A stretch of 64,000 bases of DNA from Clostridia bacterium (GCA_045627045.1 JAZQMY010000056.1:47995-111994); one strand, 5' to 3'; shown: positions 24,776 through 52,165, counted from the stretch's first letter. Notes: a model not told the origin generated them from the letters alone. Numbers and translations: made by a program.

Positions 24776-25350
24776 CAGTTCATATAATTGACCTTGAGCT
24801 TGATTTTTTCAGAGACATCATTCTTGATTTTTGATATCAGCTCTGTTGCCATTTCGTAATAGCAGCTGGAATCTTCGAATTTACGTCTTGAATGCAGATA
24901 TCTGTATGCTGCCCAGAGCGAGAAGACATTGTGATATTCTTTCGGAATGACGGGCATATTTGTTGCGGTTGAAACGGTGAGGCTTACGATAGGATTCTGA
25001 TTTACAAGAAGCGCAGGCATATAGTTATAGGTAATGACCACGTTCTGTGCGGATGTTCTTACGGAAATAATGTTTCCGACATTTCTTTCCCAGAGAAGTC
25101 TTTCTCCGGAGAGGCTTGTGATCTTTCTGATTCCGAGAAGCTCGTTGTTCAGGGAATCCGTATTGAATTCGTGATCACTGTCAAGTCGGACAGTTTCCTT
25201 TGCGAAAAGCCTGTATGCATCCGTCATTATCCTTCTGTAAACCTCGTTATAAGCGGTGAGAAAGAATGCGGAAAGCTCGGTTCTTGCTTCGTTATCGACG
25301 GGCCTTCTGATGTACTGAAGAGAAAGCGTATCAAGTTCGTATACGTTCAT
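24775..25350 (-). CDS. Phage-derived protein (head-morphogenesis/minor head protein candidate), 191 aa; start at the RBS-supported ATG 25350
   Basis: Last gene of the terminase-portal module. GGAGG lies 8 nt upstream of the ATG at 25350. No assignable motif. Confidence 0.35.
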   Translation of the reverse strand: MNVYELDTLSLQYIRRPVDNEARTELSAFFLTAYNEVYRRIMTDAYRLFAKETVRLDSDHEFNTDSLNNELLGIRKITSLSGERLLWERNVGNIISVRTSAQNVVITYNYMPALLVNQNPIVSLTVSTATNMPVIPKEYHNVFSLWAAYRYLHSRRKFEDSSCYYEMATELISKIKNDVSEKIKLKVNYMN

Positions 25351-25366
25351 TGTGAATTCCTCCGGA

Positions 25367-25624
25367 TTAAATGCCGAGTCTTCCTGCCTGGAGAAGAAGG
25401 AGATATACTGATTCCGGGACTTCCACGGAAACGCCGCACTGGATTCTGAATACGTATCCGTTGCAGCAAAGCTCAACTGTTGAAGGTCTGCCTTCTATTA
25501 CTGGGAGAATTACGGTGTATCTGATGTCGTCGGCAAGCTCTTTGGCGATTTCCTGAATGCCTTTGTCGATTTCGCTGTCGGTGAGTCTTTTTGAAATGCT
25601 GTCTGTTGTGTTGATGTTTTTCAT
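25367..25624 (-). CDS. Small phage-derived protein (85 aa)
   Basis: Tightly packed between the portal gene and the following gene. Confidence 0.3.
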   Translation of the reverse strand: MKNINTTDSISKRLTDSEIDKGIQEIAKELADDIRYTVILPVIEGRPSTVELCCNGYVFRIQCGVSVEVPESVYLLLLQAGRLGI

Positions 25625-25649
25625 AGTTGATTATCCTTTCTTGTTTTGT

Positions 25650-27227
25650 TTATTCCTGTGTGTCTGAAACGGCGTCAAGCTCGTCCTTTCCTTCAAAGCT
25701 CATAAGGCTGAGCATCTGCTTTGATGTTATAACGCCTTCTTTGTGGAGCTCCATAGCGATTTCATTGTTGTATGTGACCTCGTACGGATTTTTCTTCTGT
25801 GCGTGAACCTTGATATCAAAATCGTATTTTGAATGATCGGAAAATTCCGCAGGATCAAAATAATATGACTGCTTTGCTCCCTTGCCTGTGATTCTTACAA
25901 CACGGGTGTTGTCATAAAACTGTGCAACACGGGAGAGCATCATTTTTACGATTTCGGTGTAGTGATCGTATATTCTGCCGACGATGTTTCTTGTTCGCTT
26001 GCTTGCGGCATTCTGAAGAGCGAGAATGGCACTTGCGGCGGTGATTGATGATGTGGCTTCGCCTCTTGCAAGCTCTGTCTGACCTGAATCCTTCTTGAGC
26101 ATATCAATCATGAACGAGAGATGTTCCTGAACCATGGGCGATATTGAAGCCGGCTGGAACCAGCGGATGCTTCTGTCGGAGATATCGGAGCCTTCGAGAA
26201 CGTCCTCATCCCAATCGGCAAGCTTTTCCTTGGGAATATTGCAGCGTGAGTCCTTGAGAAGACGCATCTTGCCTGACATAAACGAGTTCTTGAGTATGAT
26301 TCTGTCGAGCATATCAATGTATTCCTGCTCGGGCTTGAATACGTCGATCATTCCCATGCCGATAGGTGAATCCTCAAGTTCATAAAGCGGGATCACCACG
26401 AACGGATAAAGACCGTCGGAATAAATGCCTGTCTGAGCAGTCTCTTCGTTTTCCTCGCTCCATTCAAGAAGAACGCCTCCTGCAATTTTGGCCATATGAA
26501 CCACCGTGCTCATTGAGGAGGGATTATACTTCTTGTACCAGCGCTCAATAAGAAGAATCCCGTTTTCACTGTCTGAAATCATTCCGGAGCTCTGAAGCCA
26601 CGGCTTGTCCGAGAATTTATCTGCTTTTTCGGGATAGCGCTCACGGAACCACTCCTTATCGTGAAAGCTGAATCTGAAAACATTTCTTCCGTTCTGGATG
26701 TCGTCATAAGCGGTATCCCAAAGAAAATATCTCATATCGCACGGAGAGACATCAATATCTCCGTAGCCTCCGTAAAGAGAGCTGTTCCAGAAGACGGAGA
26801 AGCAGCAGGCACCGTTCTTCAGGAGACGAAGAGTCTCGCTTCTGTACTTTCCTGCAAAGGAGCATCTCTCAAGAGCTGAATTGACTATTGAGGAGAGCGT
26901 ACCTGCAAGCTCTTCATCCTCCTTGCCGTAGGGGAGAAGCACTGCTTCGGGGTAGTTGTCCATAAGCTCTGAATGAACGTTTTCAATGGAACTGAAGAGA
27001 ACGGGAATGCTCGGATAAGGCTCGTTCGGGAGCTTTTCTTTTGAATGCCAGTGATCGGAACGCCAGAAATTCTCGTTTTCCTTGCATCTGGCACGAAAGC
27101 CGGATGTTTTTTCGTAGTACTGTCTGAACAGTCTTTCGCTTTCGTCGATAAAAGCTTCCCGGACTGCTGTTGTCGGATAAATCATTTTGTATCCTTTCCT
27201 TTCTTTGTTTATAATATCAAACCGCAT
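25650..27227 (-). CDS. Phage portal protein (SPP1 gp6-like)
   Basis: 525 aa, matching portal size, directly downstream of the large terminase with a 1-nt gap. Acidic C-terminus. Confidence 0.6.
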   Translation of the reverse strand: MRFDIINKERKGYKMIYPTTAVREAFIDESERLFRQYYEKTSGFRARCKENENFWRSDHWHSKEKLPNEPYPSIPVLFSSIENVHSELMDNYPEAVLLPYGKEDEELAGTLSSIVNSALERCSFAGKYRSETLRLLKNGACCFSVFWNSSLYGGYGDIDVSPCDMRYFLWDTAYDDIQNGRNVFRFSFHDKEWFRERYPEKADKFSDKPWLQSSGMISDSENGILLIERWYKKYNPSSMSTVVHMAKIAGGVLLEWSEENEETAQTGIYSDGLYPFVVIPLYELEDSPIGMGMIDVFKPEQEYIDMLDRIILKNSFMSGKMRLLKDSRCNIPKEKLADWDEDVLEGSDISDRSIRWFQPASISPMVQEHLSFMIDMLKKDSGQTELARGEATSSITAASAILALQNAASKRTRNIVGRIYDHYTEIVKMMLSRVAQFYDNTRVVRITGKGAKQSYYFDPAEFSDHSKYDFDIKVHAQKKNPYEVTYNNEIAMELHKEGVITSKQMLSLMSFEGKDELDAVSDTQE

Positions 27228-27228
27228 A

Positions 27229-28617
27229 TTATGAAAGCGGATCGAATTCTTTTCGGATGACGGGAGATGGCACGGACTTCGGCTGAGGCCTTATGGGGTG
27301 CGCCATGAACATATATCTCGTTTCATCATAGATGTGGTCTTCACCGTCCGTGTCGATATCCTCGCTGTTGATCCTGCTGTAAACAAGATCCGGAAAAGTA
27401 CGGATGAAATCTTGGCAGGTATTGAAAACGTAGAACATGGGCATACCTGAATTGTCAAATTTAAGTCTGTAATGGACCTGCATTTTGCCGGCAAGTCGTG
27501 CGTTATCGCCTCTTCGGAAATAGACACCGTGGTTTTCCATCTGCCTTGCGATGCTTTCGCCGCGGCTCCCTTCAAATATAGAAGGGTCGGCTATGCCTGT
27601 GACCTCATTTTCACCGTTTTCCCTTTCGATACGGGCTATTTCCTTTGCGATTTCCTCGGGCGGAATGCGGATGCCTTCGTTTGGTGTTCCGCTGCAGCCG
27701 TAGTATTCACGGTAGCGGTAAAGCCTGCCGTCATTATCCTCAGCCCACCATCCGACGGAAAACGGCCTTGAAAAACCGAAATCGAAGCTCCTGTATCTCG
27801 GCCAGCTTGCAGGAATGTCAAATGGCTCGATGACATGAGTGTGCTTCATTGTCAGATAGTTGGCAGGATCGTTTGTCCATTCGGTGAAAACCTGACCTTC
27901 AAATGCATCCCACAGACCGAGAAGGAGCGCCTTGCGGAGCTTTTCGGGCTTTTGCTCAAGCTCAAAGATATAGTCCTTTGTGATATGCGGATTATCTGTC
28001 GCAAGCGCAGGGATATACTGAACTGTACGGACCTCGCTTGTGCCTAGGACGGAGCTTCTGACTTCTTTCCTGTAAACCTTGTACGGCTCACGGCCTTCGA
28101 TGAACATGGCTTTGACCCAACCGTGACCTATGCCGCCCGGATTTGTGGTGCATCTCACAACAGGCTTGATGCAAAGACCTCCCGGAGCACGAAGTCTCGT
28201 TTTCAGATAATCGTAGACATCCTTTTCAAAATGAGTAAGCTCATCAATGAAGAGCCAATGTATTTCAACTCCCTGATATCTTGTGACGTCATTTATTCCG
28301 GAACAGTAGCGAAAATGAAGCGCACTGCCGTTTTTCAGGAGAAAGTCATGCGTTGCGGCCTTGTATTTGCCGAGAACGTCGGGAATTGATGAGAGCGCCT
28401 CACGGATAAGCGTATCACGGAGCTCAGGGTAGCTTCTTCTGAAAAGAAAAGCGTGTGTTTTCGGATGCTCAAGGCATCTTAAAAGAGCTTCCATCACGCA
28501 GGCCTTTGACTTGCCTCCTCCTGCCGCACCGCCGTAAAGAACCTCATCGGCTGTGCTTTTGTGGAAAAGCATCTGCTTTTCTGTGGGAGTATAATTCAGG
28601 TAAACTGTTGTAGACAT
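27229..28617 (-). CDS. terL: Phage terminase large subunit (PBSX/SPP1-like)
   Basis: N-terminal Walker A 'LYGGAAGGGKSKA', Walker-B-like 'LFIDELTHF', and a C-terminal nuclease-like region with acidic residues. Confidence 0.8.
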   Translation of the reverse strand: MSTTVYLNYTPTEKQMLFHKSTADEVLYGGAAGGGKSKACVMEALLRCLEHPKTHAFLFRRSYPELRDTLIREALSSIPDVLGKYKAATHDFLLKNGSALHFRYCSGINDVTRYQGVEIHWLFIDELTHFEKDVYDYLKTRLRAPGGLCIKPVVRCTTNPGGIGHGWVKAMFIEGREPYKVYRKEVRSSVLGTSEVRTVQYIPALATDNPHITKDYIFELEQKPEKLRKALLLGLWDAFEGQVFTEWTNDPANYLTMKHTHVIEPFDIPASWPRYRSFDFGFSRPFSVGWWAEDNDGRLYRYREYYGCSGTPNEGIRIPPEEIAKEIARIERENGENEVTGIADPSIFEGSRGESIARQMENHGVYFRRGDNARLAGKMQVHYRLKFDNSGMPMFYVFNTCQDFIRTFPDLVYSRINSEDIDTDGEDHIYDETRYMFMAHPIRPQPKSVPSPVIRKEFDPLS

Positions 28618-28760
28618 TGTTTGTATTCATCCTTTCTGTATATAATTTAACATTGCGCAAAACTTTTTTGTCCCGAAAAATTATATATAATAAAATATCG
28701 TCCTATTTCTGATGCAAATGGAATATTATTTAGCAAAACAGAGTTGAAAGGATAAAAAAC

Positions 28761-29648
28761 ATGAGAAATTTCAGAATGAAAAAGAGAACAAAGCCAATAT
28801 TTGTGACCAAAGCTGCATTTGTAAACGTTTTACTTTTCACGGGAGTGGCAGTATTCCTTGCGGTGGCAGTGCTTGCGGGAAAAGCCGTCAGCACAGGAAT
28901 GCTTGAAAAGGAAAATGAGAATAAGAACAGTTCGGTGACAGTGAATAAAAGCAAGGACGATGATGTGAACCCTGCGCCGGACAGTACGCCTGAGGCTTCG
29001 GCTGATACAACAGAGAATACTGTCAGACTGATGTTTGATGCACAGAATTATTATGTTATCCAGCTGGGAGCATTTTCAGGCGAAGCAAACGCGAATAAAT
29101 GTGCTTCCTCTATCCGTGCTTCGGGCGGAGCAGGCTTTGTGCGTGAGCAGGAAGGAAAATATTATGTTTATGCGATGTGCTACGCAGATTCCGAGGATGC
29201 AAGGACGGTTTCGGCAAACCTGAAGGCGGAAGGCAGATCTGCGCTCGTGAAGTGCTTCAAAACGGCATCACTTGCGCTTGATATCTCCGGAAGCGAAAAG
29301 TGCGTGGCTGATATAGAATCGGCAATGAGAGGGATCGAGGAGGTTCCTGCGGAGCTTGAGAAACTCATATTCAGCTTTGACAGAGGAGAGTGCGAGAGAA
29401 CTGCTCTCAAGACATCTCTCATGAAGGTGCTTGAAGATGTTGAGACGTACAGAGATGTTTTCGGACTTTACAGGGAGCAGTCAGCATTCTTTGCACAGTC
29501 TGAAAATTATTGCAAGGGAGTCTATGATGATATTGCTTCGGTGCTGAAAGCGGATGATGACACCGCTTTATCGGCTGAACTGAAACATATTTATATAAAT
29601 ACGGTTTTTAATTTTATAGAATATCTTGACAATGCTGACGTTGGGTGA
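28761..29648 (+). CDS. Membrane-anchored SPOR-domain (peptidoglycan-binding) protein
   Basis: N-terminal TM segment, low-complexity linker, then 'YYVIQLGAFSGEANANKCASSIRASGGAGFVREQEGKYYVYAMCYADSEDARTVSANLKAEG', typical of a SPOR fold. Confidence 0.6.
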   Translation: MRNFRMKKRTKPIFVTKAAFVNVLLFTGVAVFLAVAVLAGKAVSTGMLEKENENKNSSVTVNKSKDDDVNPAPDSTPEASADTTENTVRLMFDAQNYYVIQLGAFSGEANANKCASSIRASGGAGFVREQEGKYYVYAMCYADSEDARTVSANLKAEGRSALVKCFKTASLALDISGSEKCVADIESAMRGIEEVPAELEKLIFSFDRGECERTALKTSLMKVLEDVETYRDVFGLYREQSAFFAQSENYCKGVYDDIASVLKADDDTALSAELKHIYINTVFNFIEYLDNADVG

Positions 29649-34023: not shown

Positions 34024-35730
34024 ATGAAAAAGATTATTTCTTTTGTTTTGATTTTAATACTTCTGGTTTTTGCGGCGGGCTGTAAGGGTCCGGAGGAGAC
34101 TCCTTCAGGCAGCGCTGATCCCACGGCAGAGAGCACACCTACTCCTGCACCGACATCAATGATAAATCCGCAAAGAACGCTTTCTCCGCTTCTTACGCCT
34201 ACACCTGTTCCTGAGGAGACTCCTGCACCGACACCTACGCCGGGCTTTTCAGAGTTTTCAATATTCACTCTTGACCAGGGAACGGGAACTTATGCATACG
34301 CCTGGACAAAGGAATGTCCTGTAACATCAGATTCGATTCCTTCGGGCACGAGAAGTGCTGAAGTCAGCGCAATACAGAACAGATTGAACAACTTCGGATT
34401 CTATTTCGGTACTGCTTCGGGCGTACTCAACAATGCGACGATGACGGCGGTGAACGAATTCAGAAAGATGAATGGACTTGAAGCCGAAACAAGCATTTCA
34501 AGAGAAACGATAGATCTTCTTTTTTCTTCCGAAGGCATCAAGGCAATGACGATAGAAGAGCTTGCCATCGAGCCGGGCTCACTTGACGGTTTGACGGTAT
34601 TCGTTGATGCAGGACACGGCGCAAGTGCAACAGGTACTGCGAAGAACTCTCTTGTGGAGAAGGATTGCGTTATCGAGATCGCATACAGACTTAAATCGAT
34701 CCTTGAGGCTGCAGGCGCAAGAGTTATAATGACAAGAAAGGACGACTCTGATATCTCTCTTACTTACAGATCTGCGCTCACAAATGTCACAATGCTCAAT
34801 GACCTCATTGCACAAGACAGAAACAATATTCTCACCATCCGTGAAAAGACACAGACTATAAAAGCGTATGCAGACTACACACTTGAAGAGCTCAGCGCTG
34901 AAATAAAGGAGCTTAACGAACGTACGAACAGACTCTATTCCGAATACATTCAGGCAAAGGCAAACCTCGACGAGGCACTTGCCGGATACGGAAGCAATTC
35001 GGATGAGTACAGAGCGGCAGAGAGAAAAGTCAGTGAGCTCAAAGAAGAGGGCTCCCGCATAAACGAGAAAAAGACTAGCATTTCGCAGATTTATTATTAT
35101 CTGGAAATGGGCGTTGAACTGGACACGTTCATTTCGGAATATGAAAATCAGGTAATTGAGACAGAAAAGGACATAGAGCTTCTTGAATACTATGTTTCCC
35201 TCTTTGAACCGTGCCTTGAATCACCTTCAACCGAAAATGCAGGTATATATCACAGAATCCTTGACGATAACGGCATCAAGATAATCGATCAGGAGCTTTC
35301 GGCTGTACTTGATCTGACAAATGAAAGATGCACCGGAAAGTACGTTTTCATATCCGTTCACGTTAACGGCGTTGACAATGCGGATTATGTAAACGGTACC
35401 GAAATATACACACGTTCTGTAAATAAGTATAATACGGCATACGGAATCAACCGCAGCTATTATTACAATTATTGTGCAACAGAGAGAAATGCCCTTGCAG
35501 AGGCTTTGCAGGAGGCATCAATGTCTGTTGACCCGCTTTCCACGGGAAAAGCGGCAAAGGTAAAGGACTCTGACCTTTTTGTACTCAGAGAAATAAACAT
35601 TCCTTGCATTCTGCTTGAAACAGGCTATGTAACGAATGAATATGACAGAGTTACTCTTATGAATCCTGCAACGAAATATAAGTTTGCATATATGATATAT
35701 GAGGGTCTGAACTCATTTTATAACAAATGA
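34024..35730 (+). CDS. Lipoprotein N-acetylmuramoyl-L-alanine amidase (Amidase_3) with a PG-binding domain and a long coiled-coil insertion splitting the catalytic domain
   Basis: Lipobox 'FAAGC', P/T-rich linker, PG_binding_1-like 'AEVSAIQNRLNNFGFYFGTASGVLNNATMTAVNEFRK', and Amidase_3 blocks 'VFVDAGHGA' and 'FISVHVNG' separated by about 200 aa of heptad-like sequence. Confidence 0.65.
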   Translation: MKKIISFVLILILLVFAAGCKGPEETPSGSADPTAESTPTPAPTSMINPQRTLSPLLTPTPVPEETPAPTPTPGFSEFSIFTLDQGTGTYAYAWTKECPVTSDSIPSGTRSAEVSAIQNRLNNFGFYFGTASGVLNNATMTAVNEFRKMNGLEAETSISRETIDLLFSSEGIKAMTIEELAIEPGSLDGLTVFVDAGHGASATGTAKNSLVEKDCVIEIAYRLKSILEAAGARVIMTRKDDSDISLTYRSALTNVTMLNDLIAQDRNNILTIREKTQTIKAYADYTLEELSAEIKELNERTNRLYSEYIQAKANLDEALAGYGSNSDEYRAAERKVSELKEEGSRINEKKTSISQIYYYLEMGVELDTFISEYENQVIETEKDIELLEYYVSLFEPCLESPSTENAGIYHRILDDNGIKIIDQELSAVLDLTNERCTGKYVFISVHVNGVDNADYVNGTEIYTRSVNKYNTAYGINRSYYYNYCATERNALAEALQEASMSVDPLSTGKAAKVKDSDLFVLREINIPCILLETGYVTNEYDRVTLMNPATKYKFAYMIYEGLNSFYNK

Positions 35731-41681: not shown

Positions 41682-42404
41682 ATGTCATATAATGTTTTCA
41701 GCATCAAGAAATTCATGCACGACTATTCAGAGCTCCTCCGTAACGATTACAAAGGCTTTACCGCACGCCCATGGAACAGATTCAGACCCGAAGAAACAAA
41801 GTGGTGGGTCGTTCCGACAACTGCATGGCCTTCCTTCGGCATGGAGAAGCTCTGCTTCTGGTGTAGCGGAAAGTACCTCTACGGCGGCTTCAATATAGAG
41901 AAGGGCATAGAGATATCTCCCGAGGATATCCAGTATGATGCCAAGAACATCATTATGACGGATGAATGGAAGTGGAAGAGGTTCATCAAGGACTGTGATG
42001 ACGGTGTTATCGATTCGATGGTTGACAGCTTCAATGATCACGTTTCGTTCCCTGTACATATGACGATAAGCGCAAATATTGTTAGCTCGATACCCGGATA
42101 TGATCCGTACGGCAACAAGAAATCGGATAATATTGAGTTTGCCATTACGAAGGATACTCTCAATATCTGCGAAAAGTCATTTGACATTGCCGCACTTGCT
42201 CCGTTTGAAAACGTGGAGGGCATAAGAGAAATACCTGAATCACTTGCAGTGGTCAAGGGCTTGAACTGGCTTTGGATCGACGTGATGATTTTTGCGCCTG
42301 TTTATTATATCAGGTCGGGATCGTCCTGCAATGTTGAGAAAATAAGAAAAAAAATGTCGATGTTTGAGGAAAGAATATTTGAAGACCTCAGAATAAACAA
42401 ATGA
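41682..42404 (+). CDS. Hypothetical protein (240 aa, Trp/Cys-rich, no signal peptide)
   Basis: Clean ORF with RBS GGAAGGAGG. No recognisable family. Confidence 0.45.
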   Translation: MSYNVFSIKKFMHDYSELLRNDYKGFTARPWNRFRPEETKWWVVPTTAWPSFGMEKLCFWCSGKYLYGGFNIEKGIEISPEDIQYDAKNIIMTDEWKWKRFIKDCDDGVIDSMVDSFNDHVSFPVHMTISANIVSSIPGYDPYGNKKSDNIEFAITKDTLNICEKSFDIAALAPFENVEGIREIPESLAVVKGLNWLWIDVMIFAPVYYIRSGSSCNVEKIRKKMSMFEERIFEDLRINK

Positions 42405-42587
42405 GATCATAATTATCGGGGCAATTTTTGATGTGTTGAATAAACTGCATTGAGTCGGAAGACAATACCGAGAATTGCCGGACACAATGGTAATGGTATT
42501 ATGAAATTATACTTTTATGCAGAAGGTATTCTCACTAACAGGCGATAAAGATTAAGACTGATAACGTGGCTTATGCTGCGTAAAAAG

Positions 42588-42625
42588 AGAGCAGAATTTC
42601 AACGATGAAGTTCTGCTCTTTTTTG
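42588..42625 (+). terminator. Intrinsic terminator
   Basis: AGAGCAGAA-(14 nt)-TTCTGCTCT, a 9-bp stem, followed by TTTTTT. Confidence 0.6.
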
Positions 42626-42718
42626 CTGAAGAGCCTTTTGAATGCATAAATTGTTTTATTTTTATAACACATATGATATAAAAATAAAAATTGTTTTGAT
42701 ACTGACGGTGGAAATATA

Positions 42719-43243
42719 ATGAAAAGAAAACTATTGGCGTTTGCTTTGTGCCTGGCGATGATTTTGGGCTGTTTGCCGGTAACGATTACCCGGGCTTCTG
42801 CGGCTGAACCAAATGTGAAGATATCGGTCGGCGCATCAGATACGGGAGCGACTGTAATCAGTGAAACTATATGTAATACTGTCCAAGAGGTCAATGATGC
42901 CATTGTCGGAATCAGAAAGAAATACCCGGATAAAAAGTGTTTGATAATTATCAATAATTCCTGTGTTGTTGATGCTAAAATCGTTTTGCCGGAGGGCGGC
43001 AATTATCTGATAGAGGGCAAAGGCTATTTGATTTCAACGACGAGAGCCATTAGGTCTATCTTTTTGAAAACCACGGAACGGCTGAAGCAAATGAGTGCAT
43101 TCTTGAAAACAAAAACGGCTTTTGCTGCATTGAAAACTACGGGACGCTCCAGTCTGAGAGTTGGATACTGTTCAAACAATATGTGACTGCACTTTCTGAG
43201 GTCGGTGCGACAGCAAAGAGCATACTTACGAAAAAGCAATCTT
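42719..43243 (+). pseudogene. Small secreted protein gene interrupted by a +/-1 frameshift at a T5 homopolymer (43061-43065). The ORF track shows only the 5' 155-codon part (42719-43186); the in-frame continuation ends at TAA 43241-43243
   Basis: Signal peptide 'MKRKLLAFALCLAMILGCLPVTITRASA'. After 'RAIRSIF' the tracked frame becomes low-complexity (LKTTERLKQMSAFLKTKTAF...). Reading one extra T gives protein-like 'FENHGTAEANECILENKNGFCCIENYGTLQSESWILFKQYVTALSEVGATAKSILTKKQS*', whose stop lies 12 nt before the GC-rich terminator at 43255. Confidence 0.55.
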
Positions 43244-43846: not shown

Positions 43847-43883
43847 CCGCCTTCCTGAAAACGGAAGACGGTTTTTTGTTATT
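43847..43883. terminator. Bidirectional intrinsic terminator
   Basis: CCGCCTTCC-tgaaaac-GGAAGACGG followed by TTTTTTG. Confidence 0.55.
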
Positions 43884-44532
43884 CTGTGAAGTATATCATC
43901 TGATAAACCTTGTTATTGTAATCTGAAAGAAGTCCGTACTCATCGGAGAGAGGATCCATTATGATGAATTCCCCGTCCTTGATGCCGATTATTACCACCC
44001 AGAAGCGCGAAACGGACGGATTTGATGTTCTTACCAGCACAGGAGAACCTTTCTTCAGAAGACTGATTATGTCCTTTGATTTGAATACTGACATTGAGTT
44101 GATGGCAGGGGACTCGTAGGTCAGAGCGTACTTGTATTGCATATATTCAGGTCTGAAGTCACAGAAAACATCCGAACCGTCATCTGAATAGAGACTGTTT
44201 GCATGGAACATTGAGTAGAGCTCGTCCGGAGTTTTGTAGATATTGAAAAGCCTGAATACAGATGCGGTGCAGCAGAGCTGACTCCCGTATTCACAGATTC
44301 GGACATTCAGGTCATCGCACATTATTGTCATGCCCCAACGGCTGTCATCCTGCCTGATAGAATCAACAGCGATAGGCCCGATGTCTTCGCAACCGTCGGC
44401 ACTTATTATGATGCCTTCGTTTTTCAGATAGCTTGCACGGGTAATGCTTTGCGCCGATACAAGCATATATGCAATCACTGCGACTGCAACGACCGACAAC
44501 CAAAAGATAGTAACGGAATGATTTTGTTTCAT
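43879..44532 (-). CDS. Membrane-anchored papain-like cysteine peptidase, C39-like (Peptidase_C39_2-like), putative
   Basis: N-terminal TM/signal anchor. 'YGSQLCCTASVF' resembles the Q-x5-C...AS catalytic box of C39-like domains. Later His/Asp candidates are present. Confidence 0.35.
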   Translation of the reverse strand: MKQNHSVTIFWLSVVAVAVIAYMLVSAQSITRASYLKNEGIIISADGCEDIGPIAVDSIRQDDSRWGMTIMCDDLNVRICEYGSQLCCTASVFRLFNIYKTPDELYSMFHANSLYSDDGSDVFCDFRPEYMQYKYALTYESPAINSMSVFKSKDIISLLKKGSPVLVRTSNPSVSRFWVVIIGIKDGEFIIMDPLSDEYGLLSDYNNKVYQMIYFTE

Positions 44533-44602
44533 ATGTGTACCTCTGTGTAAAAAAGAAGCAGAACCAAAAAATATTACAGCTCTGCTTCAGGGAAAACTTA
44601 TT

Positions 44603-45787
44603 TTATGCCAGCTTTATTACCTGACCCATCTCATCTGTATAGTAGATACAGCCGTTGACAACGCTCGGAGCATATCTGACGGTGTACATAGCCTGAGAAG
44701 ACCATCTGTATTCACCGGTGTCAAAATCGAGGCAGAAGAGATAATATTTAGAGTCATCAGTTCTTCCTCCAATGAGTACCGAGTTTCCGATAATCGTTAC
44801 GCCGCTTGTCATCCAGTAAACACCCGGCCAACGCCACTTGAGCTCACCGGTCTGTGCGTCACAGCAATATACGTTTCCGTCATATGAGCCGTATACTATG
44901 CAGTCATCCTTGATTGCAGGAGTACCCGAAACCCACATTGTACCTGAACAGTCATTCACCCAGACAGGCTGGATAATATCGGGGTTTTCGTTATAAACAT
45001 TGAAGCAGTAGAGCTTGCCCATACCTGTTCCGAAGTAAACCTTGTCATCATAAACCGTTGCGCCGTAGAGATCGCTTGAGTTTGTGGTATCGAAAGCCCA
45101 GAGGAGCTTTCCTGTGGTTGCATTCAGAGCATAGTAATATGCATTTTCAGCTCCGAAGAATACCATACCGCCTTCATAACCGCCACCGTAGTATGTTATG
45201 TCAGATACGATATGTGATACTGTTGAGTAAGTCCAGATCGTTTTCTTGGTGCTGAGATTGATTGCTACAATACCTTCGTCACGTTTATCGGATTGTTCAA
45301 CTCCGCAGACAAAAATTCCGTTATCCGTTATTACAGGGTTGTAGATAACGGAGCCGTTGATTTCGGCATAGTCGATAAACTCGCCTGTTACAGGATCAAG
45401 CTCGTAGAGATAACCGTCATTTGAAGCAACGTAAAGTCGATCGTTATAATAGATAGGTGAGTTTGTAATCGCACCTTCTGTCTTATATGACCACTTGAGC
45501 TTACCCTTGCTGTCGGAGAGACAGTAAACATATCCGTCTGTTGAACCGAAATAAACGTAACCGTTTACTACGATAGGAGTTGACTGGGAATGTGAGCCCG
45601 TAGGTATTCTGTATACCCAGCCGAGACCGGGCATATCAAAATCAGCTGTATCAAGTGTTCCTATGTGGGAAGAAGTTGCTCCCACCTGAGTCCACCATGG
45701 TCCGTCATAGTCGGACTTCGGCTCGCAGCCGCAAAGTGTAAAGATCATAGCAATGACAAATATCAATGCTGCTATTCTTTTTTTCAT
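44603..45787 (-). CDS. Lipoprotein with PQQ-like/BamB-like beta-propeller repeats
   Basis: Lipobox 'FTLCGC'. Multiple 'DG.VYC.D...G...W' repeats (for example 'GSTDGYVYCLSDSKGKLKWSY', 'ASNDGYLYELDPVTGEF', 'GSYDGNVYCCDAQTGELKWRW'). Confidence 0.65.
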   Translation of the reverse strand: MKKRIAALIFVIAMIFTLCGCEPKSDYDGPWWTQVGATSSHIGTLDTADFDMPGLGWVYRIPTGSHSQSTPIVVNGYVYFGSTDGYVYCLSDSKGKLKWSYKTEGAITNSPIYYNDRLYVASNDGYLYELDPVTGEFIDYAEINGSVIYNPVITDNGIFVCGVEQSDKRDEGIVAINLSTKKTIWTYSTVSHIVSDITYYGGGYEGGMVFFGAENAYYYALNATTGKLLWAFDTTNSSDLYGATVYDDKVYFGTGMGKLYCFNVYNENPDIIQPVWVNDCSGTMWVSGTPAIKDDCIVYGSYDGNVYCCDAQTGELKWRWPGVYWMTSGVTIIGNSVLIGGRTDDSKYYLFCLDFDTGEYRWSSQAMYTVRYAPSVVNGCIYYTDEMGQVIKLA

Positions 45788-45811
45788 TTTTTATTCCTTT
45801 CTCCGGGAGAA

Positions 45812-46042
45812 TCAGAATTTCATCCCGTTAAGGATTTCACGAAGAGCAATAACCTCATCCTTAGTAAGAGAAATGCCCTTGCTCATCTTCTGATGATCTT
45901 CAGACCAGTCACGGATATCGATTTTCGGCTCTCTTCCGTTCCAGCTTACGTAATTTACTTCTCTGTTCCAACCCTTGCCGTTTGAAGAAACGATACCGAT
46001 GTGTTCTGCAATTTCAAATTTAAATTCGTCCATAATGTTCAC
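45812..46042 (-). CDS. PC4/YdbC-like small ssDNA-binding family protein (putative)
   Basis: 76 aa. 'IVSSNGKGWNREVNYVSWNGREPKIDIRDW' resembles the YdbC/PC4-like fold. Confidence 0.35.
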   Translation of the reverse strand: MNIMDEFKFEIAEHIGIVSSNGKGWNREVNYVSWNGREPKIDIRDWSEDHQKMSKGISLTKDEVIALREILNGMKF

Positions 46043-46058: not shown

Positions 46059-47543
46059 TCAACCGTGGAATAATTTCTTGTTCTGATATTTTGGTTCGTA
46101 TGTGATATTCAATCCGAGCTTGCGGAAAGTGCCCTCATCAACCTGAGAGAGAATTACAGTTGAGTGAGCTTCACAGCCTGCGAGCTTGTGGAGCTGATTC
46201 ATTGCGAGCTCTGCGTTCGGGTCTGAAACGGCGCAAACGGAAAGTGCAACGAGAACTTCGTCTGTATGGAGTCTCGGATTGTGGTTTCCGAGGAATTTTG
46301 TCTTCAGGTTCTGGACAGGCTCAATTACCTTCGGCGAGATGAGCGTTACATCGTCGGGAATTCCGGCAAGCGCCTTGAGAGCGTTGAGAAGAACTGCTGA
46401 TGATGCTCCGAGAAGAGGAGATGTTTTGCCTGTGATGATTCTTCCGTCATCGAGCTGGATCGATACGGCAGGAAGACCTGTTTCTTCTTCCTTCTTGAGT
46501 GCTTCCGTGATGCAGGGACGGTCAGCTGTTGTGATGCCTGCCTTCTTCATGAGAAGCTCGATCTTGTATATTTCGTCATTTGTACCCTGTCCCTGAACCT
46601 TTGCGCAGAGAGCCTGATAGTAACGTCTGATGATCTCCTGCTTTGATGCGGCCTCAACGGCATCGTTGTCAAATATGCAGTAGCCTGCCATATTAACGCC
46701 CATATCCGTTGGTGACTTATACGGAGAAGAACCGTATATCTTGTTGAACATTGCATCGAGAACAGGGAAGATTTCAACGTCTCTGTTGTAGTTTACAACT
46801 GTTTTGTTATAAGCCTCGAGATGGAACGGGTCGATCATGTTGACATCGTTGAGGTCTGCGGTTGCGGCTTCATAAGCGAGGTTTGTAGGATGGTTGAGCG
46901 GAATATTCCAGATAGGGAATGTTTCGAATTTAGCATAGCCTGCCTTGATGCCTCTCTTGTGTTCGTGATAGAGCTGTGAAAGACAAGTAGCCATTTTGCC
47001 GCTGCCCGGTCCCGGAGCAGTAACAACGATGAGGGAACGTGTTGTTTCGATGTAATCGTTCTTGCCGTAGCCTTCATCACTTATTATGTGCGATACGTTT
47101 GACGGATAACCGCTGATTATGTAGTGCTTGTAAACCTTGAGTCCGAGTGCATTGAGCTTTGCTTCAAATGCGATCGCTGCGGGCTGACCGCTGTAATGTG
47201 TGATAACAACACTGCCGACAAAAAGACCGATTCCTCTGAAAGCATCGATGAGGCGGAGTATATCAAGGTCGTATGTGATGCCGAGGTCTGCACGGAGTTT
47301 GTTCTTTTCAATGTCGTTTGCACTGATGACGATAATAATTTCGGCCTGATCCTTGAGGTTAAGGAGCATCTTGACCTTACTGTCCGGTTTGAAGCCGGGG
47401 AGTACACGGGATGCGTGGTGGTCATCAAATAATTTACCGCCGAATTCCAGATAAAGCTTACCGCCGAATCTTGAAATGCGCTCTTTGATTTTTTCTGACT
47501 GGATTTCAATATATTTTTGATTGTCAAATCCGATTTTGCTCAT
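46059..47543 (-). CDS. UPF0371/DUF1846 family protein (start at ATG 47543, 'MSKIGFDNQKYIE')
   Basis: 'YIEIQSEKIKERISRFGGKLYLEFGGKLFDDHHASRVLPGFKPDSKVKML' is the characteristic DUF1846 N-terminus. About 494 aa. Confidence 0.7.
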   Translation of the reverse strand: MSKIGFDNQKYIEIQSEKIKERISRFGGKLYLEFGGKLFDDHHASRVLPGFKPDSKVKMLLNLKDQAEIIIVISANDIEKNKLRADLGITYDLDILRLIDAFRGIGLFVGSVVITHYSGQPAAIAFEAKLNALGLKVYKHYIISGYPSNVSHIISDEGYGKNDYIETTRSLIVVTAPGPGSGKMATCLSQLYHEHKRGIKAGYAKFETFPIWNIPLNHPTNLAYEAATADLNDVNMIDPFHLEAYNKTVVNYNRDVEIFPVLDAMFNKIYGSSPYKSPTDMGVNMAGYCIFDNDAVEAASKQEIIRRYYQALCAKVQGQGTNDEIYKIELLMKKAGITTADRPCITEALKKEEETGLPAVSIQLDDGRIITGKTSPLLGASSAVLLNALKALAGIPDDVTLISPKVIEPVQNLKTKFLGNHNPRLHTDEVLVALSVCAVSDPNAELAMNQLHKLAGCEAHSTVILSQVDEGTFRKLGLNITYEPKYQNKKLFHG

Positions 47544-47770
47544 TTTTAAAAAATTGACCTTTCCATGACATATAAATCTATTTTGTAAATTATACCACAA
47601 AAATTCAAAAAAGGCAATTATTTAAATAAAAAAGTTCTGATATTTGTGTGAATTGTACTTCAAGGAAAATAAAACTATTTTTGAAATAATTAAATAATAT
47701 ACGCTCTTCCACAGAAAAAACAGTGCAGATCCGTATTATCATTTAAGTGAAGAAAGGAGGCATAAAGCCT

Positions 47771-48373
47771 ATGTATGAAACGGACGAAAAGTTCGAGCAG
47801 GAGCTTGTGATGCTCAGAGAAAAGATAGCACAGGAAGCTCTTGCACAGGAAGCCGCTCCGTCTGAAGAAGACACGGAGCAGGCAAAAGAAAAGAGCGATG
47901 ACGAGCTCATTGCCGAAGCTGTAAGGGGAATGTTCCCCGAGGGCACGTCGAAGGAAGATATCATTTCCGGAATCACTGATGCGATGGACACATCCTGCAA
48001 GAGATTCAGGGCAGATACCGATATCGACAGACTCCTCGGCGAGGAAAAGAAAATCAGGGAGGTTTTCCCGGAATTTGACATTGCCGAAGAGCTGAAGAAT
48101 GATGCTTTGTTCAGGCGAATGATCGCAAACGGCGCTGATGTCCACTCGGCATTGCTTGCATCAAACGGAGAATATCAGAACAGAATCACGCAGGTAATAA
48201 AGCGTGATGCCAAAAGGGAAATGGCAGATATGCTCAGAAGGGGCAGGGAGCGTATAATGCCGGAAACAGGACATGAGTCAAAAGAACCCGAATACGATCT
48301 CTCCAAGCTGACGGATGAAGAATTCGAAGAGCTTGAAAAGAAAGTAAAACAGAGCAAGAGATTATTTTTATAA
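47771..48373 (+). CDS. Phage scaffold-like protein (acidic, helical/coiled-coil), 200 aa from ATG 47771
   Basis: RBS AAAGGAGG 10 nt upstream. Highly charged E/K/D-rich sequence. Immediately precedes the capsid-like gene. Confidence 0.4.
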   Translation: MYETDEKFEQELVMLREKIAQEALAQEAAPSEEDTEQAKEKSDDELIAEAVRGMFPEGTSKEDIISGITDAMDTSCKRFRADTDIDRLLGEEKKIREVFPEFDIAEELKNDALFRRMIANGADVHSALLASNGEYQNRITQVIKRDAKREMADMLRRGRERIMPETGHESKEPEYDLSKLTDEEFEELEKKVKQSKRLFL

Positions 48374-48391
48374 GCAAAAGGAGTAAAAATT

Positions 48392-49627
48392 ATGCAGTTG
48401 AACACAAATCTTACAACATCGGAATCTCAGGGAAACAACCTCAGCAGCACTGTCGTTACATACTATGACAGAAAGCTCATTAAGAATGCAAAGCCCCGTC
48501 TTGTTCACCAGAGATTCGGTCAGAAGAGACAGATCCCCAAGAACGGCGGAAAGAGCGTCAATTTCAGAAAGTTTGAAATTTTCCCTGCCGCTACAACACC
48601 TATTTCAGAAGGTGTAACTCCGGACGGAAGAGCGCTTGACATGACAAGCATCACTGCCGATCTCAAGCAGTACGGCGATTACGTTGCAGGCTCAGATTTA
48701 CTTGACCTTACGGCAGTTGATCAGGTGCTTGATGAGACGTTTGAGCTTCTCGGCGATCAGGCAGGTCTTACACTTGACCATGTCACAAGAGATATCATTC
48801 ATCAGGGCACATCCGTTCAGTATGCAAATTCAAAGAGCAAGAGATATCTTCTCACTTCATCTGACGTTCTTACAAGCGAAGAGATCAGAAAAGCTGTCAG
48901 AACGCTCAAGCGCAACAAGGCAAAGCCCTTCATCCGTAACGGCAAGCCCTATTATGTTGCAATAATTGACCAGGATTCAGCTTACGATCTTATGTGCGAT
49001 GAGCAGTGGCAGAAGGTTGCCGAATATCAGAATGCGGAAAAGATCGAAGAAGGAGAAATCGGTAAGCTTTACGGCGTAGTATTCATCGAAAGCCCCGAAG
49101 CAAAGAAGTTTGATGTCACACCTCTTTCTGCACAGTATGATTCTCTGACTATTACCTCTTATACTTCAAGCACAAGAATGGTTGACATTGCAGAAGCGAT
49201 TACCGTAGAGGATGCTAATAACCTTAAAGGCAGAACTATTGTTATCAAGGACGTTTCTGCATCACCTGCTGAATATACTACTGCAGTTATCAAGAATGCT
49301 GTTGCAGGACAGGCAGGTGCGGCATATCTTCAGTTTGTAACGGCACCTTCATTCACTCCTGCATCAGGCGACAAGCTTTTTGATGCTGGCTGCGGACTTG
49401 AAAATACGGGAATCAATTCAACTATCATTTTCGGTAAGGATGCATTCGGCGTAGTTGACATTGAAGGCGAAGGAGCATTCAAGACGATCTTCAAGCCGAA
49501 GGGCAGTGCCGGCACAGGCGACCCGCTCGACCAGAGATGGACAGCAGGCTGGAAGGCTTCAGGCTTTACTGCGGCTATTCTTCAGGAGCTCTGGATGGTT
49601 CGTATTGAACACGGTTACACACGCTGA
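48392..49627 (+). CDS. Phage major capsid protein-like (411 aa)
   Basis: Position after the scaffold-like gene. Size and composition (mixed beta-rich, Gly/Thr-rich loops) fit major coat proteins. No enzyme motifs. Confidence 0.45.
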   Translation: MQLNTNLTTSESQGNNLSSTVVTYYDRKLIKNAKPRLVHQRFGQKRQIPKNGGKSVNFRKFEIFPAATTPISEGVTPDGRALDMTSITADLKQYGDYVAGSDLLDLTAVDQVLDETFELLGDQAGLTLDHVTRDIIHQGTSVQYANSKSKRYLLTSSDVLTSEEIRKAVRTLKRNKAKPFIRNGKPYYVAIIDQDSAYDLMCDEQWQKVAEYQNAEKIEEGEIGKLYGVVFIESPEAKKFDVTPLSAQYDSLTITSYTSSTRMVDIAEAITVEDANNLKGRTIVIKDVSASPAEYTTAVIKNAVAGQAGAAYLQFVTAPSFTPASGDKLFDAGCGLENTGINSTIIFGKDAFGVVDIEGEGAFKTIFKPKGSAGTGDPLDQRWTAGWKASGFTAAILQELWMVRIEHGYTR

Positions 49628-49699
49628 GAAGCACTGAAAACGGAGGCGGCTTTTTCAAAAGAGCCGTCTCCGGATGATGTATGAAAGGAATAATAAAAA

Positions 49700-51106
49700 A
49701 TGAAGTTGATCAGGTACACAACGGACGATTTTTCAGGGGGCTTTTCGGCGGCATCATCTGAAATCACAATGAAGAACGGCTTCTCTGCGCAGGCATACAA
49801 CGTGGAGGCTCTTGACGGAAAATTGCGGACAATGAAGGGCTGCAGCCTGAAGGTTGAAACGCATATAAATTACAGGGGACAGGTCTTTACTCCCAAAAAG
49901 CTTATGGTATACCGTTCAGAGAGCGTCGATAACGAAGAGCTGCTTGTATGGGCAGAGGGCAGAGGGTCGCTGAGCATTTTCAGATATACAGGAAGCGGAT
50001 GGGAAAATGTTGACAATAACTATTCAAATGCAGATGTAGGCTATATGAATCAGTTCTTTAACGGTCAGAACAACCTTATTCTTGCGTCATCAGAGGACGG
50101 AATGTTTATTTATGACGGAAATGAGACGGAAGAAATTGATATCTGTCCGATGGCGGGAAGCCTGACACTTCATTTTGAGAGACTCTGGGCAGTGGGTGAC
50201 CCGGGCAACCCGAATACGGTTTATTATTCGGCAGAAGGAAATCCTACGCAATGGGACAAGGATAATTCTGATGCCGGCGAGATAATGATCACAACGTTTG
50301 ACGGTGACCGATTTATCGGAATCGAAAATGTGTTTGACGATGTGGTGCTTTACAGACACAATTCGCTTTTTCGAATATCGGGATCAAATCCTTCATCGTA
50401 CAGACTTCAGCAGATCCAGGCATCGACCGGTGCAGTCGGAACGAAAGGCATTGCAAATGACGGAAAGTATTCATTCTACATCGGAAATAACGGAATTTAC
50501 AGATTTGACGGAATGAAGGCTTATCTTCTGGAGAATGACAGATTAAGGGAATTCTTTGCAAAGGATGTTAACAAAACCGCTCTTTCGGAGGCCTCTGCAA
50601 TCATTAACGGGAACACACTTTACGTTGCCTTGCCAACGGGCATGAGTGCCTTCAACGATACGGTGATCGAGTATGACATTATAAGAGGCGTTTTCAATAT
50701 CCGCAAAAACGTTGATATAACTGAATTCGCCGTTTACAGGAATGAGCTTATTTTTATTGATACATTGGGAAATATCTGTATTTATAATTCAGGAGATGCT
50801 TACAAGGGCGAATGCATAGATGCAAGATACGAAACGCCTGTATGTGAATTCGACGGAAAGAATGTTAACAGAACGCTTGACAGCGTTTACTTTTGCGGAA
50901 CCGGAAACGGCAAGATTGTTATCAGCTGCATTACCGAGAACGGTACGCGTTCGGTTGAGGTAAGGCTTTCAAGGGATGAGAAAATGTACAGGGTCCCATT
51001 GTGGAATTCAGGCAGGCGATTCAAGTTTGTTCTGGAGAATTGCAACGGTTCATGGTTTGAAATAACGAATCCTGAATTTTTCCTGGAAGAGGATGATGCG
51101 GATTGA
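49700..51106 (+). CDS. Phage structural protein with beta-propeller-like repeats (468 aa)
   Basis: Repeated 'G..Y..DG' and Y/W/N/G-rich segments. Located in the capsid module. Confidence 0.35.
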   Translation: MKLIRYTTDDFSGGFSAASSEITMKNGFSAQAYNVEALDGKLRTMKGCSLKVETHINYRGQVFTPKKLMVYRSESVDNEELLVWAEGRGSLSIFRYTGSGWENVDNNYSNADVGYMNQFFNGQNNLILASSEDGMFIYDGNETEEIDICPMAGSLTLHFERLWAVGDPGNPNTVYYSAEGNPTQWDKDNSDAGEIMITTFDGDRFIGIENVFDDVVLYRHNSLFRISGSNPSSYRLQQIQASTGAVGTKGIANDGKYSFYIGNNGIYRFDGMKAYLLENDRLREFFAKDVNKTALSEASAIINGNTLYVALPTGMSAFNDTVIEYDIIRGVFNIRKNVDITEFAVYRNELIFIDTLGNICIYNSGDAYKGECIDARYETPVCEFDGKNVNRTLDSVYFCGTGNGKIVISCITENGTRSVEVRLSRDEKMYRVPLWNSGRRFKFVLENCNGSWFEITNPEFFLEEDDAD

Positions 51107-51120
51107 AAAAGAGGTAAGAA

Positions 51121-51486
51121 ATGAACAAAGGACAGGAAGTGCGTATAACAGATGTTACGTCGCCGATAGGACTCAAGACGTTGAATGACACGCTGAATTT
51201 TATACTGAATACGATAAGACAGAGAATTGATCTGACGGAAAGATACAAGACGGTTTTCTTTTCTCAATCTGTATCTGTTCCGGCAGGAGGCGTAAATACG
51301 TTGAATTTCGGGCAGACGTTTGTTGAGGAGCCGCAGATAGTGGCATCGGCGCAGAACGGAGCGAGCGTAAGGCTGGAAATCCCGACAGGTGAAACGGATA
51401 TGAGGAAGAAGGTCAATATTTCTTTCTCCGATCCGGCAATAAGCGGAATAGTCAGTGTGATAGCAATAGGAAAGGCGGATATTTGA
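51121..51486 (+). CDS. Small phage-associated structural protein (121 aa)
   Basis: Compact ORF. 4-nt overlap (ATGA) with the next ORF. Confidence 0.3.
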   Translation: MNKGQEVRITDVTSPIGLKTLNDTLNFILNTIRQRIDLTERYKTVFFSQSVSVPAGGVNTLNFGQTFVEEPQIVASAQNGASVRLEIPTGETDMRKKVNISFSDPAISGIVSVIAIGKADI

Positions 51487-51692
51487 ATATGAGCACAAAC
51501 GAGGACAGAACCGATAATATTATCAGGACTATGAATGAATATCAGAGCAGGGAATGGGCAGAGGCTTATGGTCGTGTCAGGGAGCTTGTGGAGAACGAAG
51601 CCGTCTTTGATGACGAAAAAGAAACAGAAAAGCTCATTTCCGATATCAAAAGAACAAGATGCGATACAAAAAAGGAAAGAGGCTATTTCTGA
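51483..51692 (+). CDS. Small phage-associated protein (69 aa)
   Basis: Translationally coupled between the structural gene and the holin. Confidence 0.25.
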   Translation: MNMSTNEDRTDNIIRTMNEYQSREWAEAYGRVRELVENEAVFDDEKETEKLISDIKRTRCDTKKERGYF

Positions 51693-52096
51693 TGAAGAAT
51701 GATCTTGATATAAAGATAATAATGACAGCCTGCTCATCGGCACTGATGTGGCTCATAGGCGGTTGGAACGTAATACTCGGAATACTTGCAACGGTTATAG
51801 TATGCGATTACGTCAGTGGAGTGCTTGCAGCAATAAACGAGAAAAAACTCTCAAGCTCTGTGGGCTGGGCAGGACTTCTCAAAAAGGCAGCTACACTTCT
51901 TATAGTAGTGGTTGCGCATCTTGTTGATGTTGCGCTGGGCAATACCGATGACATCGTGAGAAATATCACGGCTCTTTTTTACATTTCGAATGAGCTGCTT
52001 TCAATATTTGAGAATGTGGGAAGACTTGGCGTGCCGCTCCCGGACGTTCTCAAAGAGGTATGCGAAAAGCTGAAGACGGGGAAGAAAGAGAATTAA
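51692..52096 (+). CDS. Phage holin, TcdE/holin_4_1 family (134 aa from ATG 51692)
   Basis: Three TM segments. 'LIVVVAHLVDVALGN' and 'FYISNELLSIFENVGRLGVPLPDVLKEVCEKL' closely resemble the C. difficile TcdE 'FFLSVVDIL...LYESVSILKNMCLCGLPVPKRLKEKI'. Confidence 0.7.
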   Translation: MKNDLDIKIIMTACSSALMWLIGGWNVILGILATVIVCDYVSGVLAAINEKKLSSSVGWAGLLKKAATLLIVVVAHLVDVALGNTDDIVRNITALFYISNELLSIFENVGRLGVPLPDVLKEVCEKLKTGKKEN

Positions 52097-52108: not shown

Positions 52109-52165
52109 GGAATGCCATTCGTTTTCGGAAAAACTGATTCCGGAGATGAATGGCATTCTTTTTAT
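52109..52165. terminator. Terminator between holin (+) and DUF951 gene (-)
   Basis: GGAATGCCATTC-(27 nt)-GAATGGCATTC, a 10-bp stem, followed by TTTTT. Confidence 0.5.

Follow-up and report, generated by a model that had tools for sequence, protein, structure and literature searches.

A split, podovirus-derived gene set in a Clostridia chromosome as a candidate gene transfer agent-like particle system

In this study, we describe a phage-derived gene set in a 64,000-nucleotide stretch of DNA (the window) from a Clostridia bacterium (GCA_045627045.1 JAZQMY010000056.1:47995-111994). The set lies in two modules 19 kb apart: module B (47771-52096, plus strand), which encodes a scaffold-like protein, a major capsid protein, a tail nozzle, two small proteins and a holin, and module A (24775-28617, minus strand), which encodes the large terminase (TerL), a portal, a small conserved protein and a probable head-to-tail adaptor. 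We think that modules A and B probably form a bipartite, vertically inherited, podovirus-derived and gene transfer agent (GTA)-like system, or 'viriform', which is under selection to form particles; that it would also carry out true gene transfer is less certain. As in GTAs and viriforms, the chromosome carries head-tail and packaging genes that are not accompanied by genes for replication, integration or lysogeny. A sequence-only reading of module B had taken it for a phage-derived module, which is borne out by its capsid, nozzle and holin matches. However, that reading had also taken module B for a stand-alone unit without terminase or portal, which no longer holds, as genes for TerL, the portal, the 85-aa protein orf85 and the probable adaptor lie 19 kb upstream.

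Products of the two modules

The second gene of module B, g2 (48392-49627, plus strand), encodes a 411-aa protein which is, by family match and predicted fold, an HK97-fold major capsid protein of the N4-gp56 family. It scores 241.6 bits against the NCBIfam model for N4-gp56 capsids, TIGR04387 (cut-off 60), matches PHROG 1357 'major head protein' (E 6.6e-71) and shares about 40% identity with its counterpart in the Bacillus podophage Page. Moreover, when its AlphaFold2 (AF2) model, built from 59 homologues with a predicted local distance difference test (pLDDT) score of 85.9, was submitted to the Foldseek check that the sequence-only reading had proposed for an HK97-fold coat, the best matches in the PDB were all HK97-fold phage coats (N4 gp56, Shigella phages B2 and Moo19, and P22; E about 1e-13), in agreement with that proposal. 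Orthologues with 76-82% identity were found in seven loci of six species, two of the loci (L008 and L010) being contigs of one metagenome-assembled genome (MAG), in a scan that took one genome per species. Relative to the Page protein, g2 has an insertion of about 90 residues at approximately 241-331, which is beta-rich and modelled at pLDDT >90. Page, L009 and L021 have capsid proteins without this insertion (about 320-334 aa), and those of L011, L018, L020, L022 and L023 contain it (394-415 aa). Capsid proteins 36-48% identical to g2 are also encoded by four unannotated 'Bacteriophage sp.' scaffolds from human faeces in Mexico, MT836150 (= L002), MT836218, MT837590 and MT835662, the first of which also codes for portal and scaffold homologues; these may be phages or packaged GTA-like loci.

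The third gene, g3 (49700-51106, plus strand), encodes a 468-aa protein which is, by fold and profile match, a podovirus tail nozzle. Its AF2 model (pLDDT 96; predicted template modelling score 0.94) is the beta-propeller expected from the sequence-only reading, and Foldseek matched it in the PDB to the Pa223 tail chain 9nwi_Y (E 8.5e-25, TM 0.83), to 8zkk_O (the VP1 portal-tail chain named 'nozzle gp16') and to tail-complex entries of GP4, P22, SU10 and T7. A sequence profile searched against PDB sequences also matched 9nwi_Y (1.6e-14) and the VP1 'nozzle gp16' chains (about 5e-8), and g3 also matches PHROG 3287 'virion structural protein' (E 1.5e-15). The family is large, with 1823 representatives at E<=1e-3. 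Thus, the earlier statement that the module has no tail has to be withdrawn, since g3 is a tail nozzle and g4 may well be a short fibre or needle.

The g4 gene (51121-51486, plus strand; 121 aa) lies directly after the nozzle gene and has no match in the family libraries scanned. About 32 residues at its N-terminus are conserved and its C-terminal part is variable, to the extent that the L003 orthologue is 219 aa long with a different C-terminus, and no other gene of the set evolves as fast (non-synonymous divergence, pN, 0.447). From its position and from this conservation pattern, which is typical of a receptor-binding protein, we regard g4 as a candidate short tail fibre, needle or receptor-binding protein. 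It is followed by g5 (51483/51489 to 51692, plus strand), which is probably coupled in translation to g4 and the holin gene. Its product is small (about 67-69 aa), acidic and likewise without match in the family libraries scanned. An open reading frame (ORF) of 64-97 aa occupies this position in 7/7 loci, with a common MNE[YF]..EW motif and a C-terminal GYF.

The last gene, g6 (51659 or 51692 to 52096, plus strand), encodes a TcdE-type holin of 145 aa from the first ATG or 134 aa from M12. As the sequence-only reading had claimed, it belongs to the TcdE family: it matches Pfam PF05105 (Phage_holin_4_1) at E 1.4e-38, passes TIGR01593 'toxin secretion/phage lysis holin' with 99.1 bits (cut-off 40.2) and matches the holin family PHROG 199 (6.7e-28). 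Its orthologues, 60-76% identical, align from M12 at 51692 and are invariably encoded by the last module gene, the genes further downstream varying among species. A dual-start holin/antiholin arrangement (M1/M12) was considered and set aside, as the N-terminal extension is not conserved in the orthologues. Compared with the TcdE/Phage_holin_4_1 holins whose two models it passes, g6 differs from TcdE in that it ends a capsid/nozzle operon and not a toxin locus, with no endolysin or endolysin remnant alongside.

The first gene of the module, g1 (47771-48373, plus strand), lies directly 5' of the capsid gene and encodes an acidic, lysine-rich protein of 200 aa with orthologues of 44-54% identity in seven loci. 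It matches PHROG 13908 (E 1.6e-6), as does, at E 1.9e-15, a protein of L017 encoded between the portal and capsid genes. On the grounds of position, composition and the PHROG shared with the equivalent gene of L017, g1 appears to be scaffold-like.

Search with the proteins of phage Page by tblastn located a portal gene at about 25.9-26.6 kb, in a group of four minus-strand genes that constitutes module A. The first of these encodes TerL (27229-28617, minus strand; 462 aa), which matches Pfam Terminase_6N and Terminase_3 as well as PHROG 2 and 979 (E about 1e-44). It retains intact and conserved motifs for Walker A (GGAAGGGKS), Walker B (LFIDELTHF) and the nuclease, and its orthologues are 73-75% identical and occupy the same chromosomal position. 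It is followed by a portal of the P22/SU10 type (25650-27227, minus strand; 525 aa; P22_portal 8e-24, SU10_portal 3e-9, PHROG 156 5.8e-54), which is similar to the Page portal and has orthologues of 61-69% identity. Portals of the chromosomal GTA-like copies measure about 500-530 aa versus 590-714 aa in phage-like relatives (Page 635, L009 714), a difference that corresponds to a C-terminal part absent in the GTA-like copies. The conserved orf85 (25367-25624, minus strand; 85 aa) accompanies the adaptor gene; it has orthologues of 55-56% identity in L012-L015 and homologues after the capsid gene in L009, L011, L020, L022 and L023, and those of L009, L011 and L018 match PHROG 15239. The fourth protein (24775-25350, minus strand; 191 aa from the ATG at 25350) is a probable head-to-tail adaptor. 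It has a Pfam SU10_adaptor match that falls below the cut-off and is faint in the orthologues, it aligns in hhalign with an SU10_adaptor-positive protein of L018 at E 1.2e-4, and in contiguous relatives an adaptor-equivalent gene is found between orf85 and the nozzle gene. An encapsulin or other nanocompartment, which might be thought of from the capsid gene, is ruled out by the scaffold, portal, terminase and nozzle that accompany it.

Both modules lie among host genes. Module A is flanked by DUF4153 and TrmB genes on one side and by the genes for a SPOR-domain protein, PcrA and LigA on the other, and the 19 kb between the modules code for the SPOR-domain protein, PcrA, LigA, DXS, NAD kinase, ArgR, RecN and similar housekeeping proteins. 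The SPOR-domain gene (28761-29648, plus strand) is divergent from that of TerL across a 144-nt common intergenic region, an adjacency that is kept in L012-L015 though the SPOR protein itself is only about 40% identical. Module B has the core-gene flanks that had been claimed for it, a DUF1846 gene upstream (46059-47600, minus strand) and genes for DUF951 and an ABC ATPase downstream, and its GC content is that of its surroundings. Its six ORFs are, as had been described, co-directional and tightly packed, with intergenic gaps of 18, 72 and 14 nt. As expected for translationally coupled genes, g5 overlaps or abuts both g4 and the holin gene. Upstream of the module there is an AT-rich region of 170 nt (47601-47770, plus strand), shared with the divergent DUF1846 gene, in which GAAAGGAGG forms a ribosome-binding site at 47753-47761 before the g1 ATG at 47771; a start of g1 at GTG 47747 instead is unlikely. 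Directly after the holin gene, an intrinsic terminator (52111-52157, plus strand) consists of a 20-bp stem followed by a T-run. A scan for sigma-70 promoters gave counts not above those of shuffled sequence.

It seems that the two operons share an upstream element. The regions upstream of g1 and of the TerL gene align over nine loci as TTC[CG]1-3GAAA, about 20 nt, RTGWTA and then the ribosome-binding site. In the upstream region of module A (28618-28760, minus strand) the element reads TTCGGGACAAAAAAG, about 10 nt and then ATGTTA, from 28677; the copy of module B is degenerate, with TTCCACAGAAAAAA at 47707-47720 and CGTATTA at 47732-47738. A strict regular expression matches 8/9 of the aligned upstream sites, the window g1 copy being the one unmatched, with one stray match in L004 and a chance expectation of about 0.4 per 64 kb. 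The common element hints at co-regulation of both operons. Since the modules are co-conserved on one contig of another species and a similar element precedes both operons, we consider them to be halves of one system.

Conserved position and selection

The arrangement of both modules recurs in other species. In four loci with an upstream flank (L003, L005, L006 and L016), the five BLAST-detectable genes of module B and a g5-like ORF follow DUF1846, and L010 runs from DUF1846 through g1 into the capsid gene, with the rest of module B on L008 of the same MAG. Likewise, the series TerL, portal, 81-85-aa ORF and adaptor adjoins the SPOR-PcrA-LigA-amidase-DXS genes in L012-L015, and GCA_965337945.1 has both modules with the same intervening genes on one 81-kb contig. 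Synonymous sites are saturated between the species (pS 0.73-0.83), and pN is 0.146 for the capsid protein g2 and 0.167 for TerL, within the range given by the host proteins DUF1846 (0.112), PcrA (0.183) and LigA (0.205). Disrupted ORFs were found in none of the loci compared, the ten ORFs of the particle system being intact in every species examined. Moreover, in the identity matrices of g1, capsid, nozzle and holin, L003 falls together with L008/L010, and L005 with L006 and L016; the host proteins DUF1846 and PC4 yield the same species groups. These comparisons indicate that both modules are vertically inherited under purifying selection at fixed chromosomal positions.

The data above bear directly on whether the modules could be decaying prophage remnants, split by rearrangement and non-functional. 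This would account for the incomplete set in the window, where TerS (the small terminase), an endolysin and large tail proteins are missing as compared with L009, which has TerS and large tail proteins, and for the broken ancestral gene order. However, the ten ORFs remain intact despite saturated synonymous sites, and a pseudogenising remnant would not survive at such divergence. Furthermore, capsid and TerL are under constraint similar to that on PcrA and LigA, several species share the position and show a divergence that matches that of host genes, and the catalytic motifs and upstream elements are conserved. The remnant explanation is thus largely refuted and we hold it to be very improbable.

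A further possibility is that the modules are a helper-dependent satellite similar to the capsid-forming phage-inducible chromosomal islands (PICIs), which would make its own heads and borrow tail and lysis functions from a co-resident phage. In its favor, the window holds head, portal, terminase and minimal tail genes and no fibres or endolysin, and in L004 the gene for a 610-aa tail protein adjoins the module, showing that tail modules are exchangeable. Against this, domain scans revealed no integrase, repressor or replication gene within or around both modules, and neither an excision gene nor one for redirecting TerS was seen; no tRNA was found in the 64-kb window and no flanking direct or att-like repeats around the modules. 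The position of the modules is fixed and their divergence follows host genes, which does not speak for mobility, and their genes are spread over two loci 19 kb apart, which would not be packageable as a unit if the capsid is small. We therefore regard a satellite, too, as a very unlikely explanation. The same absence of integrase, replication gene, tRNA and att-like repeat agrees with the expectation of the sequence-only reading that module B is not part of an intact prophage, and its observation that terminase, portal and endolysin genes are absent inside 47771-52096 stands. In the whole 64-kb window, no Rfam family was matched at gathering threshold, and tblastn with the homologues from L009, L011, L017, L018 and L004 detected no TerS, large tail protein or DUF7934.

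Some neighboring genes deserve mention. The L004 locus (human-gut MAG HGM11327) carries, at 185-2315 on the plus strand, the genes for a 103-aa protein (PHROG 15594) and the 610-aa tail protein (PHROG 5302, E 9e-28) directly 5' of the scaffold gene, where other loci carry DUF1846; no homologue was detected in the window. Upstream of DUF1846 in the window, a group at 41682-43186 and 43879-46042 comprises a 240-aa ORF (41682-42404) and one of 143-155 aa (42571-43186), both without family match. Next in line are the genes of a C39-like peptidase that has a transmembrane segment at its N-terminus, of a beta-propeller lipoprotein of the PQQ type and of a PC4-like protein. This group is kept upstream of DUF1846 in L005, L010 and L016, and its members are probably host genes. 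Between the LigA and DXS genes, a lipoprotein-like protein of 568 aa with Amidase_3 and PG_binding_1 domains is encoded at 34024-35730 (plus strand), matches PHROG endolysin families (E 2e-18) and keeps its position in L012-L015. It could be the hydrolase partner of the holin or merely a host autolysin; its identification as the missing endolysin is unsupported in view of its lipoprotein signal and its host-gene behaviour in the conserved synteny.

Relatives and known systems

Related loci give an indication of the order from which the split set arose. The phage-like L009 (Christensenellales) has TerS, TerL, portal, scaffold, capsid, a small ORF, a 123-aa ORF in the adaptor position and nozzle, after which come the large tail proteins. 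L018 is an uninterrupted minimal operon flanked by genes for ribosomal proteins and an ABC transporter, in the order TerS-like, TerL (with 62% identity), portal, scaffold, capsid, 72-aa ORF, adaptor, nozzle and DUF7934. In the window, this ancestral series is recut into TerL-portal-orf85-adaptor and scaffold-capsid-nozzle-g4-g5-holin, which requires more than one breakpoint. Other loci have been cut elsewhere. In L020 (GCA_051162045.1, 'Bacillota bacterium Meth-B3'; 9001-15413), a PPDK gene is directly followed by portal, scaffold, capsid, 84-aa ORF, 120-aa ORF, nozzle and a 262-aa ORF. Its downstream flank is as in L018, there is no TerL gene upstream of the portal, and an operon of this kind seems to have been split here independently. 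In L023 (465-11561), scaffold and capsid genes lie apart from opposite-strand genes for orf85, adaptor, nozzle, a 679-aa ORF and DUF7934, the halves being separated by the genes for a SpoIIE-domain phosphatase, cdaA (DAC) and cdaR (YbbR), and L022 shows yet another gene order. The splits in L020, L022 and L023 are apparently independent. In L021, a Prp-like gene (Peptidase_Prp) lies between the portal and capsid genes; identity to the window proteins is 50% for TerL, 33% for the portal and 47% for the capsid.

The closest known system is FpGTA of Faecalibacterium prausnitzii, which consists of two operons (Borodovich et al., Nat Commun 2026; PMC12946183). Operon I (10.5 kb) contains the genes for a TerS-like protein, TerL, portal, scaffold, N4-gp56-family capsid and nozzle, and operon II (5.5 kb) those for fibre, receptor-binding, holin and endolysin proteins; the particles are about 40 nm in size with DNA of about 9 kb, and the authors consider FpGTA the first podovirus-like GTA (PMC12946183). 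They also reported GTA-like packaging in other Ruminococcaceae, Oscillospiraceae and Christensenellaceae, without naming loci for these taxa, and searched candidate MAGs of Gemmiger and Onthomonas (PMC12946183). Like FpGTA, the window system is a chromosomal podovirus-like set of gut Clostridia in two operons without replication or integration genes, and both comprise an N4-gp56 capsid (RCH50849.1 is so named, and g2 passes TIGR04387), portal, TerL, scaffold, nozzle and holin. FpGTA operon I also has a Prp gene, as does L021, which is a probable relative of the FpGTA-I type. There are clear differences as well. FpGTA operon I runs contiguously from the TerS-like gene to the nozzle gene whereas the window set is split over loci 19 kb apart; genes for the TerS-like, Prp-like and TolA-like proteins, the BppU-like fibre, the sialidase-like receptor-binding protein and the endolysin were not found in the window; the holin gene belongs to the capsid operon in the window and to the fibre/lysis operon in FpGTA; and g2 has the insertion of about 90 aa described above. 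Moreover, FpGTA is backed by electron microscopy, proteomics and packaged DNA, and the window system by its gene content and the comparison of loci. Because no protein named for Faecalibacterium appears among the best 120 capsid or portal matches, the two are probably distinct subfamilies, the comparison with FpGTA having been made by description and via L021.

Resemblance to other particle systems is more general. RcGTA and the other alphaproteobacterial GTAs, BaGTA, VSH-1, Dd1, VTA and PBSX are, as the window system is, domesticated head-tail sets without replication genes and dispersed over loci. Vertical inheritance under purifying selection is likewise common to them and the window system. 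The classical GTAs and PBSX are, in addition, host-controlled and released by holin-mediated lysis, as is proposed for the window system. However, they are siphovirus- or myovirus-like and unrelated in sequence, whereas the window system is podovirus-like, with a P22/SU10-type portal, adaptor and nozzle, and occurs in Gram-positive anaerobes. Among phages, N4-gp56-type capsids are found in Bacillus phage Page (Pagevirus), with a capsid about 40% identical and a homologous portal, in Paenibacillus phage API480 and in Streptomyces podophages. In contrast to the window system, these N4-gp56 podophages encode TerS, an endolysin, replication functions and large tail and tailspike proteins in genomes about 40 kb long, and their portals of 635-714 aa exceed the 525 aa of the one in the window.

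Proposed function and significance

We propose that the common upstream element would switch on both operons together in a subpopulation of cells. The scaffold and capsid proteins would then build a small procapsid on the portal, TerL would fill it with DNA, and adaptor, nozzle and g4 would close the portal as a minimal short tail. Packaging would probably not be sequence-specific, since no small terminase was seen. Finally, the holin would permeabilise the membrane and release the particles, with an autolysin or endolysin encoded elsewhere. It should be noted that from end to end the loci cover about 27 kb, of which 19 kb are host genes, and could not be packaged together if the capsid is small.

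Several points weigh against this interpretation. We infer particle production, random packaging of host DNA and transfer alike, and the lineage is known only from MAGs. Searches of the 64-kb window revealed no small terminase, endolysin or long fibre/receptor-binding protein, and FpGTA has all three; these functions may be encoded elsewhere in the genome or be lacking. The matches of the adaptor are weak (E 0.005; hhalign probability 55%), and the upstream element, defined post hoc from the same sequences and degenerate in the window g1 copy, is a lead. In addition, purifying selection shows that there is some function, not which one, and PBSX-like killing or some other use is equally compatible with it.

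This last point leads to the alternative that we take most seriously, although we give it a clearly lower probability than the GTA-like system, namely that the modules specify a domesticated particle which serves the host in some other way: as a PBSX-like killing or defective particle, for release of DNA or protein in biofilms, or as a decoy against related phages, with the holin acting as in TcdE-type release. The selection and synteny data are neutral on function, the tail is minimal with no long fibre or receptor-binding protein in the window, lysis is represented by a holin only, of a toxin-secretion/phage-lysis family, and a PBSX-like role was left open by the authors for FpGTA itself (PMC12946183). 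On the other hand, TerL is intact, with its ATPase and nuclease motifs, and TerL and portal are conserved as strongly as the capsid gene, which speaks for DNA packaging as a component of what is selected. In addition, the conserved N-terminus, variable C-terminus and highest evolutionary rate of g4 form the pattern of a receptor-binding protein and imply interaction with a target cell. We thus retain the GTA-like, particle-forming system as the preferred interpretation.

To our knowledge, very few gene transfer agents have been described. The first podovirus-like GTA, which is also the first from a human gut commensal, dates from 2026 and is from Faecalibacterium only (PMC12946183). The window system has an unusual split architecture and is otherwise of the kind already known from FpGTA. 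Together with its contiguous and split relatives, it provides concrete candidate loci for the packaging seen in gut Clostridia, and the L020 genome, which is not flagged as a MAG, might serve as an experimental model if it derives from a cultured isolate. The combination of TerL-portal-adaptor with scaffold-capsid-nozzle-holin may be used as a marker set for such systems, which prophage predictors report only as scattered 'phage remnants'. We suggest, tentatively and as something rather less probable than its converse, that the window system, FpGTA, L017, L018 and L020-L023 derive from one or a few ancient domestications of N4-gp56-type podophages and form a Clostridia-wide GTA family comparable to the RcGTA-like family of the Alphaproteobacteria. 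If true, such a family would explain the GTA-like packaging in Oscillospiraceae, Ruminococcaceae and Christensenellaceae. Should these systems prove active, many kinds of gut anaerobes would possess, as an inherent trait under host control, the means to exchange chromosomal DNA by way of capsids.

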